Source: a virus. From it: a stretch of 64,000 nucleotides of DNA. A program made the translations under genes and the position numbers. The notes below the pieces were generated by a model. The model was not told where the DNA came from, did no database searches, and saw only the letters and a program-made list of their open reading frames with translations. The first letter of the stretch is position 1. Each line of letters opens with the position of its first letter. Below are positions 59,712-60,623 of the stretch, one piece after another. The stretch spans positions 1 to 64,000 of the IMG/VR virus record IMGVR_UViG_3300032931_000905. The stretch is one strand, 5' to 3'.

Positions 59712-60623
59712 TCAGGCTCCTACCGCAACTGTTACCCGCGAGGCCAATGCTTTTGCCTTCGCTTTTTCGTCTGCTTTCTTTGCAGCTAAATCAGCGAGAA
59801 ACGACTTTGCAAGATCAGAAATATATTCAACTGGTTGAAACCTCTCACCAGGCTTTTCCGAATCCCTCATTTCTTGCAGCCCCTCCATGCTATTCTTTCC
59901 GATTTCCAGAATGCACGGTGTGTAAATTTGACAATACGAAGGACCCAGTTCCCTAGCAACCATGATCGAGTTTTTGATATGCCTTTCAACTAAACTGGGC
60001 TTGCTGCAAGTGAACTTGGCGATATATTGACAGCCAGATTCACGAGCGATCTCAGGCAGACGAACTTTATCAAACAACTTTCCTACAGGCGCCATCTTCG
60101 CCACAAAGCCTTTTTGCATCAGACCAGATTCCTGGCCACCGGTGTTCGCATACAATTCATTGTCGAAGCAAATCGTCGTGAACTTCTCTTGACGGAACCA
60201 GGCTTGCAAGGTCATATCGAGGCCGATATCCACGGTAGCCCCATCGCCTGCGAGGACGACCACATCTTTTGTCTTGTTGGGGAATCGAACAGAGAGGGCG
60301 CGCTTGAGGCCTGAGGCAATGGCGTTTTGATTACCGAAGAGTGAGTGGATGTTATGGACGGCGACCATTGGAAATACCAGACTGGTACACCCTGTGGAAC
60401 CGACCATGACCGTATCTTCTGGGTTAGGGAGCGAGGCGAGGATATACCTGAAGGCCATGGACTCTGGGCACCCGGCGCAGAGGGAATGGGATTCGATCAA
60501 TTCCTTCTTGTTGCCAATGTCCTTCCAACCGCGGTCTTCCTTGCCATAGGTGGCATTGGAGACCAGTTCTTTGTATTCTGGGGGCATGATGTCGAAGAGA
60601 TCGGGGGAAATGGTAGGAATCAT
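59712..60623 (-). CDS. 2-oxoacid:ferredoxin oxidoreductase beta subunit (five-subunit For/Por type, likely ForB)
   Basis: LCAGCPES, STGC, AGDG..DIG...DNE.YANTGGQ.S (TPP motif), YTPC; AGGAG RBS. Confidence 0.9.
   Translation of the reverse strand: MIPTISPDLFDIMPPEYKELVSNATYGKEDRGWKDIGNKKELIESHSLCAGCPESMAFRYILASLPNPEDTVMVGSTGCTSLVFPMVAVHNIHSLFGNQNAIASGLKRALSVRFPNKTKDVVVLAGDGATVDIGLDMTLQAWFRQEKFTTICFDNELYANTGGQESGLMQKGFVAKMAPVGKLFDKVRLPEIARESGCQYIAKFTCSKPSLVERHIKNSIMVARELGPSYCQIYTPCILEIGKNSMEGLQEMRDSEKPGERFQPVEYISDLAKSFLADLAAKKADEKAKAKALASRVTVAVGA

Follow-up and report, generated by a model that had tools for sequence, protein, structure and literature searches.

Some viruses carry auxiliary genes for a single enzyme subunit, among them psbA (encoding D1) in cyanophages, amoC in Thaumarchaeota viruses and pmoC in large freshwater phages. 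The closest described counterparts of the locus studied here come from Lake Baikal. As far as the available portion of that study goes, the T4-like Nitrospirota viruses VP_1723 and VP_99 carry a 'ferredoxin oxidoreductase' with best hits in Nitrospira, for which the authors proposed a modulation of dark carbon fixation by the reductive form of the tricarboxylic acid cycle (rTCA cycle) and drew an analogy with cyanophages (Coutinho et al. 2020, Microbiome 8:163; PMC7678222). Within the portions of text that it reached, our literature search brought up no further report of such genes in Nitrospira viruses; the accessible part of PMC12615777 describes viral korB from other hosts. Here we analyze a porB-like gene at 59712..60623, on the minus strand, of a stretch of 64,000 nucleotides (the window) that forms the first 64 kb of the linear IMG/VR virus record IMGVR_UViG_3300032931_000905 (89,020 bases; CheckV completeness 53%). 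Its product is a 303-residue protein recognizable as the thiamine pyrophosphate (TPP)- and [4Fe-4S]-binding beta subunit of a 2-oxoacid:ferredoxin oxidoreductase (OFOR) of the five-subunit type. To judge from the available part of the 2020 paper, this kind of viral gene has been known since then and the record adds another case, one in which the beta subunit stands alone, very probably belongs to the pyruvate-specific enzyme type and has long resided in phage genomes under purifying selection.

The open reading frame (ORF) runs uninterrupted for 303 codons from an ATG. A ribosome-binding site, AGGAG (60633..60637, minus strand; CTCCT on the plus strand), lies 9 nt before the start codon, and motif and spacing are identical in L109, a phage-type metagenomic fragment. 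The C-terminal TPP-binding domain PF02775 of Pfam matched residues 90-229 with 59.5 bits against a cut-off of 21.9. Nine distinct sequences were matched in the PDB with E values from 4.5e-23 to 6e-5, beta subunits of pyruvate:ferredoxin oxidoreductase (POR), oxalate oxidoreductase (OOR) or 2-oxoglutarate:ferredoxin oxidoreductase (OGOR). The top matches were 9bt4_C, the beta subunit of a four-subunit POR (E 4.5e-23), and 5c4i_C, that of oxalate oxidoreductase (E 1.3e-18); in the alignment with 9bt4_C, the cysteines of CAGC, TGC and PC match those of the phage protein. The closest NCBIfam models were VorB/PorB beta (E ~1e-31) and none reached its cut-off, the top score being 108.5 bits against 405, which points to a five-subunit lineage without a curated model of its own. 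An earlier reading of the letters alone (the original prediction) had described an intact 303-residue TPP-binding subunit with a good ribosome-binding site and CAGC, STGC, GDG..DN..YANTGGQ and TPC motifs. This description proved accurate throughout: in the translation the motifs lie at C49 and C52 (CAGC), C79 (STGC), 126-128 (GDG), 154-155 (DN), 158-164 (YANTGGQ) and C237 (TPC).

We compared the protein with its relatives residue by residue in an alignment of 83 host rows, 15 phage rows, 4 phage rows of a second paralogue and 2 host paralogue rows. Every one of the 75 columns that never vary across both paralogue families is retained in the phage protein, including C49, C52, C79, C237, G126-D127-G128 and D154-N155. 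At columns that are nearly invariant among hosts, it deviates in 26 of 247, mostly conservatively, and these deviations cluster at residues 199-233 and 263-292. Beta subunits of this family carry a GDG motif and four cysteines, according to the available part of PMC10052474. By their role in the family, C49, C52, C79 and C237 are the predicted ligands of the [4Fe-4S] cluster. Two beta residues that we take to line the substrate pocket of pyruvate:ferredoxin oxidoreductases, N160 and L82, are unchanged across both paralogue families in the alignment. By this invariance, the beta subunit alone probably does not set specificity.

To place the gene among cellular and viral relatives, we used protein, genome and phage searches together with phylogenetic trees. 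The protein search returned 1,301 relatives; the best 120 were 79-98% identical, and all organism names given by the source were Nitrospirota. Among the 80 best species-genome loci, 78 were titled Nitrospira, Nitrospiraceae or Nitrospirae, at 81-85% identity, and the other two were an unnamed 'bacterium' and a bin labeled Nitrosospira. The closeness to Nitrospira proteins that the original prediction had described is thus borne out, and the closest cellular homologues belong to Nitrospira autotrophs rather than to heterotrophs. A representative search, whose hits were mostly fragments, gave 1,369 proteins at E <= 0.001 and only 23 at <= 1e-30. No close homologue was found in the GenBank phage collection, where 11 records matched, all below 35% identity and none covering 80% of the query. 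In the careful tree (87 rows after a 95% identity filter), the window gene grouped weakly (support 80/71) with P0001-P0006, P0056 and the gene of G002, the closest large phage relative. Phage context was verified for the window, G002 and L109, while for the other rows of the group members of their 90% clusters occur on contigs of up to 103-176 kb. The group nests in a 40-row clade (86/92) whose eight named rows are all Nitrospira, Nitrospiraceae or Nitrospirae. On sequence similarity, then, the gene is host-derived, from Nitrospiraceae, and the phage probably infects nitrite-oxidizing Nitrospira. In the ESM Atlas, used for leads only, the cluster of the protein itself has 58 members, 56% of them viral among those with a record, and there are distant archaeal clusters.

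Seven further IMG/VR loci of low GC content (0.31-0.38) carry a beta subunit at 72-76% identity in the best segment of the scan, or 76-79% by local tblastn, and share an exonuclease and other genes with this phage at ~30-40% identity. Both the quick and the careful tree placed their clade (100/100) apart from that of the window (80/71). A constraint joining the two clades was not rejected (p-AU 0.83): in log units, the joined tree gained 35.8 on the quick tree and fell short of the careful one by ~3. Phages may therefore have acquired the gene once or twice, and these trees accommodate either number.

Because Nitrospira encodes more than one enzyme of this family, we examined which type the phage subunit represents. 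Nitrospira moscoviensis has three beta genes, with 83%, 43% and 43% identity to the window protein. The 83% orthologue (ALA57248 / A0A0K2G8G1) bears the submitter/UniRef name 'Pyruvate:ferredoxin oxidoreductase, beta subunit' and lies in an operon of delta (PF02552), alpha (POR_N), beta (TPP), gamma (POR) and ferredoxin-like (Fer4) genes, with neighbors named, by the same sources, POR alpha, gamma and 'delta subunit (PorD)'. One 43% copy belongs to a cluster in the order beta, gamma, epsilon, delta, alpha, and its neighbors are named '2-oxoglutarate:ferredoxin oxidoreductase' gamma, epsilon and delta. The POR-named and OGOR-named beta families split with 100/100 support in the careful tree. 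The third beta gene of N. moscoviensis (L093, at ~1.794 Mb of the chromosome) is 90% identical to the OGOR-type beta and has beside it no more than a 109-residue match (67%) to the C-terminal end of the POR-type alpha, a partial duplicate cluster.

Gene arrangement and subunit size bear on the same question. Matches were found in 40 of 121 Nitrospirota genomes. Two Nitrospirota genomes (2.4-2.6 Mb) hold, on one strand, a second-type A-B-G-E cluster, a gap of 0.9-1.7 kb and a window-type A-B-G-E-D cluster, with a window-like beta of ~80% identity; the window-type delta was seen in only one of them. In Leptospirillum ferriphilum the order is forABGE-orf2-orf3-porABGED, with names given by similarity to characterized Hydrogenobacter enzymes, as stated in the available part of PMC2607301. 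The tandem of the two genomes is therefore of the Leptospirillum type and puts the window-like beta in the por part, a match by gene arrangement only. The delta subunits are 210 residues long in the window-type cluster and 256 in the other, which parallels the sizes of the Aquifex PFOR (that is, POR) and OGOR deltas (21.3 and 27.6 kDa in the accessible text of PMC10052474) and favors POR. Coutinho et al. likewise report a Baikal viral protein similar to the POR beta of N. defluvii (PMC7678222, available portion).

Operon order points the other way and is the argument for reading the gene as that of the OGOR beta subunit (ForB). The Nitrospira operon runs delta-alpha-beta-gamma-epsilon, as do the Aquifex OGOR genes aq_1166-1171, and not epsilon-delta-alpha-beta-gamma as do the Aquifex PFOR genes (PMC10052474, in the part available); the Hydrogenobacter genes are likewise written forDABGE(F) in the accessible literature. 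It also weighs against the POR label that this label comes from curators' names and from orthology to a Leptospirillum cluster itself named by similarity. We rejected a For-type assignment from the D-A-B-G-E order, since it is outweighed by the POR names of this operon and OGOR names of the other, by the for-por tandem and by the delta sizes. Nine subunits from the two N. moscoviensis clusters could not be sorted into POR and OGOR by NCBIfam models; matches fell far below the cut-offs and the deltas were unmatched. The choice between ForB and PorB, which the original prediction had left to BLASTP and phylogeny, thus falls through curated names and operon orthology on PorB: the gene is very probably of PorB type, and its being an OGOR beta is improbable.

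We next asked how much of the enzyme the phage encodes. When all five subunits of both N. moscoviensis clusters were searched by tblastn against the whole 89,020-base record, only the porB-like gene matched; no homologue of delta, alpha, gamma or epsilon was detected in this record of about half a genome, and no ferredoxin-type CxxCxxCxxxC frame occurs in it. Given the CheckV completeness of 53%, absence elsewhere was judged in G002, which comprises 176,325 bases, is 100% complete by CheckV and is syntenic over most of the window (tRNA array, beta subunit, ligase, RtcB, exonuclease and baseplate block). The beta subunit is the sole OFOR subunit gene in this complete genome, and NifU is absent, as are extra OFOR subunits, from both the 89-kb record and G002. 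The remark in the original prediction that no other subunit lies nearby therefore extends to the entire record and to a complete relative. These results show that the phage carries part of the enzyme and not the whole of it.

A lone host-like gene in a metagenomic viral contig is often an artefact, and the high identity to Nitrospira could be explained by an assembly chimera or by host contamination of the viral bin. An operon neighbor would then be expected, yet none stands on either side, whereas host operon context (at least one adjacent subunit) was found at 79 of the 80 best metagenome loci, the exception being the phage-type fragment L109. The surroundings of the gene on both sides consist of phage genes and tRNAs, arranged alike in G002 and L109, and contigs from three runs of one study (X1, X3 and X4) span the 5' end of the gene into the tRNA array at ~92% identity. 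Composition is also that of the phage: GC content is 0.499 in the gene and 0.502 in the record, compared with 0.54-0.62 in host orthologues, GC at third codon positions (GC3) is 0.56 against 0.62-0.87, and no compositional break was found at the gene. The possibility, raised by the original prediction, that the contig is chimeric here has next to nothing left in its favor.

Three assemblies, namely the window, G002 and L109, share the position of the gene; the flanks of L109 match the tRNA side of the window and its phosphatase-like gene (94% nucleotide identity). Between the window and G002, the beta subunit at this site is 87% identical, whereas neighboring phage proteins are only 38-61% identical. 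Nonsynonymous and synonymous divergence from the G002 gene amounted to pN 0.16 and pS 0.79 (saturated); from L109, dN was 0.115 and dS 1.03, a ratio of 0.11. The gene is thus not evolving neutrally, and these comparisons show long residence in phage genomes under purifying selection.

The history of the locus nonetheless includes exchange and loss. Relative to L109, the porB allele is a mosaic, with 91-96% nucleotide identity over its first 288 nt and 54-78% over nt 577-912, beside an HNH homing endonuclease gene (59100..59708, minus strand) that lies between the porB-like and phosphatase-like genes and is missing from this site in L109. The drop in identity along the gene indicates that the window allele is recombinant, and its pattern fits co-conversion accompanying endonuclease homing. 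In run X5, a 342-base contig of a relative joins position 59096 to 60671, linking the phosphatase gene (92%) to tRNA-Val with four other letters between them; the 1,574 bases that it skips contain both the HNH gene and the porB-like gene. Its depth in that run was 63.6, compared with 3.8 for a contig covering part of the gene. Presence of the gene is therefore polymorphic among relatives.

The adjoining endonuclease, the mosaic allele and the relative without the gene could all be accounted for if the gene were a passenger without benefit, the transient cargo of a variable island by the tRNA array, moved about by recombination and homing endonucleases. Selection and distribution make such an explanation very unlikely. 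A dN/dS of ~0.1 and the retention of all invariant residues do not suit a passenger, nor do its fully ameliorated GC content and its presence at one site in phages with such diverged neighboring proteins. Furthermore, over the first 288 nt, where the allele most resembles that of L109, identity is 97-100% for the protein against 75-91% at third positions.

POR makes pyruvate from acetyl-CoA, CO2 and reduced ferredoxin in the reductive TCA pathway. The reading that we favor, with some reserve, is that the gene is auxiliary and that its product joins host PorA, PorG, PorD and PorE to keep pyruvate synthesis running during infection. The phage beta subunit would be made in the infected cell, bind TPP and a [4Fe-4S] cluster, assemble with the four host subunits and, after host gene expression has failed, take the place of the cofactor-bearing subunit or add to its supply; pyruvate and phage biosynthesis would thus continue to receive carbon from the rTCA cycle. 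The literature, in the parts available, places POR and OGOR among the most abundant and highest-flux TCA-cycle enzymes of N. moscoviensis and describes the aerobic five-subunit forms as slow and needed in bulk, with oxygen-sensitive Fe-S clusters. With an enzyme so abundant, slow and oxygen-sensitive, a phage that shuts off the expression of an obligate autotroph would gain by supplying the step. Phage genes on both sides, a host homologue with a metabolic role and purifying selection all support the auxiliary-gene reading of the original prediction.

The same auxiliary gene could instead serve the reverse reaction, in which pyruvate from stored carbon is oxidized to acetyl-CoA and reduced ferredoxin to yield energy or reductant, a redirection like that of the Calvin cycle by cyanophages. 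OFORs are reversible, and nothing in the sequence sets a direction. Both directions have been assayed for the Aquifex enzymes (available part of PMC10052474), and the ribonucleotide reductase and ThyX of the phage, which act in nucleotide synthesis, consume reductant. Against this use, the accessible sources link the five-subunit form to CO2 fixation by the aerobic autotrophs Hydrogenobacter and Nitrospira, and describe a pyruvate dehydrogenase complex that serves Nitrospira in the oxidative direction. We therefore regard oxidative use as unlikely, and return to the carbon-fixing role.

Several points weigh against that role. A lone subunit that did not assemble would be useless, and assembly is suggested by the 83-86% identity to host PorB. 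No RNA runs holding the gene stretch were listed, only nine DNA runs with small shares (0.05-0.18). The X5 contig shows that the gene is dispensable for some relatives. Finally, four of the seven low-GC loci also encode a POR-type alpha subunit (72-74%), so that the beta subunit alone is not a universal solution.

The low-GC loci also bear on why a phage might supply a beta subunit at all. A second beta, closer to the OGOR type of N. moscoviensis (61-67% identity) than to its POR type (41-47%), is present in four of the seven; three contigs end right after the first beta and are not judgeable for a second. In three loci a NifU-domain gene follows the second beta. The resulting cassette of POR-type alpha, POR-type beta, OGOR-type beta and NifU-domain genes is seen in L005-L009 (IMG/VR, GC 0.31-0.37), for example at L007:8697-12215, where its neighbors are genes for a DegP-like protease, a 5-formyl-tetrahydrofolate cyclo-ligase, a PurM-like protein and an aldehyde dehydrogenase; it may be of the type reported from Lake Baikal.

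The original prediction had likened the beta subunit to psbA, as the probably damage-prone part of its enzyme. By analogy this idea is plausible. It is compatible with the relatives that carry the betas of both enzymes together with NifU, and is weakened by those that also carry PorA and by the one without the gene; PorA carriage and gene loss imply that the beta subunit is neither the only solution nor essential. More broadly, and only tentatively, phages of aerobic rTCA autotrophs might practice repair at the level of the subunit, supplying just the oxygen-labile, turnover-limited TPP/[4Fe-4S] beta. On this equally tentative scheme the present lineage would give the POR beta alone, and its low-GC relatives a beta for each of POR and OGOR along with a NifU-type cluster-assembly protein. 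Beta turnover would then limit dark CO2 fixation in nitrite oxidizers, and infected cells would fix carbon through a chimeric phage-host enzyme.

The record is a T4-like phage of the lytic type. T4-type genes in the window encode baseplate wedge proteins, a baseplate hub with tail lysozyme, a tail protein and a tail-tube cap, and the last 25 kb of the record contain ribonucleotide reductase, ThyX and Seg-type endonucleases. At 59.7 kb of the 89-kb record, the porB-like gene sits between a tRNA array and the DNA ligase and RtcB genes. Directly downstream are genes for DNA ligase, RtcB, an exonuclease, the HNH endonuclease and a phosphatase-like protein; the last of these, a dual-specificity-phosphatase-like gene (58661..59119, minus strand; 94% nucleotide identity to L109), is a conserved neighbor. 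The RtcB RNA ligase and ATP-dependent DNA ligase genes (53163-56432, minus strand) lie near the tRNA array, ordered as they are in the 176-kb relative, and could possibly form a tRNA-repair module. In a comparison of the window with G002 (L099-L107), ribonucleotide reductase (81%), ThyX (82%) and the beta subunit (87%) are far more similar than structural proteins (37-54%).

Just upstream of the porB-like gene are eleven tRNAs and one transfer-messenger RNA (tmRNA) call by ARAGORN, a candidate at 61576-61880 (minus strand) within the array, with a 29-residue tag. The final gene of the array, tRNA-Val (60671..60744, minus strand), is separated from the ATG by a gap of only 47 nt, so co-transcription is possible. 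Within this gap, 36 nt before the ATG, a CTAAATA box (60659..60665, minus strand) that is conserved in L109 is a candidate late-promoter-like element. The motif is not enriched genome-wide (5 on that strand against ~5.7 expected), and we therefore make no claim about promoter timing. A candidate early promoter, identified by consensus match only, has the perfect sigma-70 consensus TTGACA-17-TATAAT with TG (61533..61561, minus strand); it lies 0.9 kb upstream, before a 143-residue ORF (61096-61527), the last five tRNAs of the array and the porB-like gene. A second, near-perfect sigma-70 consensus is found at 63377-63405.

Nitrospira are the main nitrite oxidizers of soils, freshwater and treatment plants and fix CO2 by ferredoxin-dependent enzymes exposed to oxygen. 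A phage gene for one subunit of such an enzyme points to a step that the virus needs kept alive, and offers a natural handle on the enzyme-limiting subunit. To the known kind of viral gene our analysis adds a beta subunit, of POR type, that is fully alone in a complete genome; a single site under strong constraint across diverged phages, with presence and absence among close relatives; and other T4-like phages with a larger PorA-PorB-OGOR-beta-NifU cassette.

Set beside its host counterpart, the phage protein is 83% identical to N. moscoviensis PorB as a whole (86% by tblastn, across 265 residues). The two belong to one length class, agree at every cofactor residue and have similar Lys/Ala-rich C-terminal tails. 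The phage protein differs in that its N-terminus is 3 residues shorter, its gene has a GC content of 0.50 rather than 0.61, and this gene stands alone, whereas the host gene is always part of the five-gene operon, porD-porA-porB-porG with a ferredoxin-like subunit. The host orthologue is in turn of the same type as the five-subunit POR and OGOR of Hydrogenobacter thermophilus and Aquifex aeolicus, with a delta subunit resembling CO-dehydrogenase beta (PF02552) and a two-cluster ferredoxin-like epsilon, and its gene order differs from that of the Aquifex PFOR cluster, a comparison made by description and not by sequence (PMC10052474, available part). The Baikal viruses VP_1723 and VP_99 are alike in being T4-like, assigned to Nitrospirota and equipped with a Nitrospira-like OFOR gene, including the similarity to POR beta; set beside this record by description, they differ in also encoding an OGOR epsilon, an Fe-S cluster biosynthesis protein, an acyl-CoA desaturase and a ferredoxin (PMC7678222, available portion). 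By contrast, the present record and G002 yielded neither NifU nor ferredoxin, and no OFOR gene besides that of the beta subunit. Like psbA, amoC and pmoC, the porB-like gene encodes a lone subunit of a central multi-subunit enzyme that would be expected to assemble with host partners. The likeness to psbA has its bounds, in that D1 belongs to a membrane complex and has an established fast, damage-driven turnover, whereas PorB is part of a soluble Fe-S/TPP enzyme.

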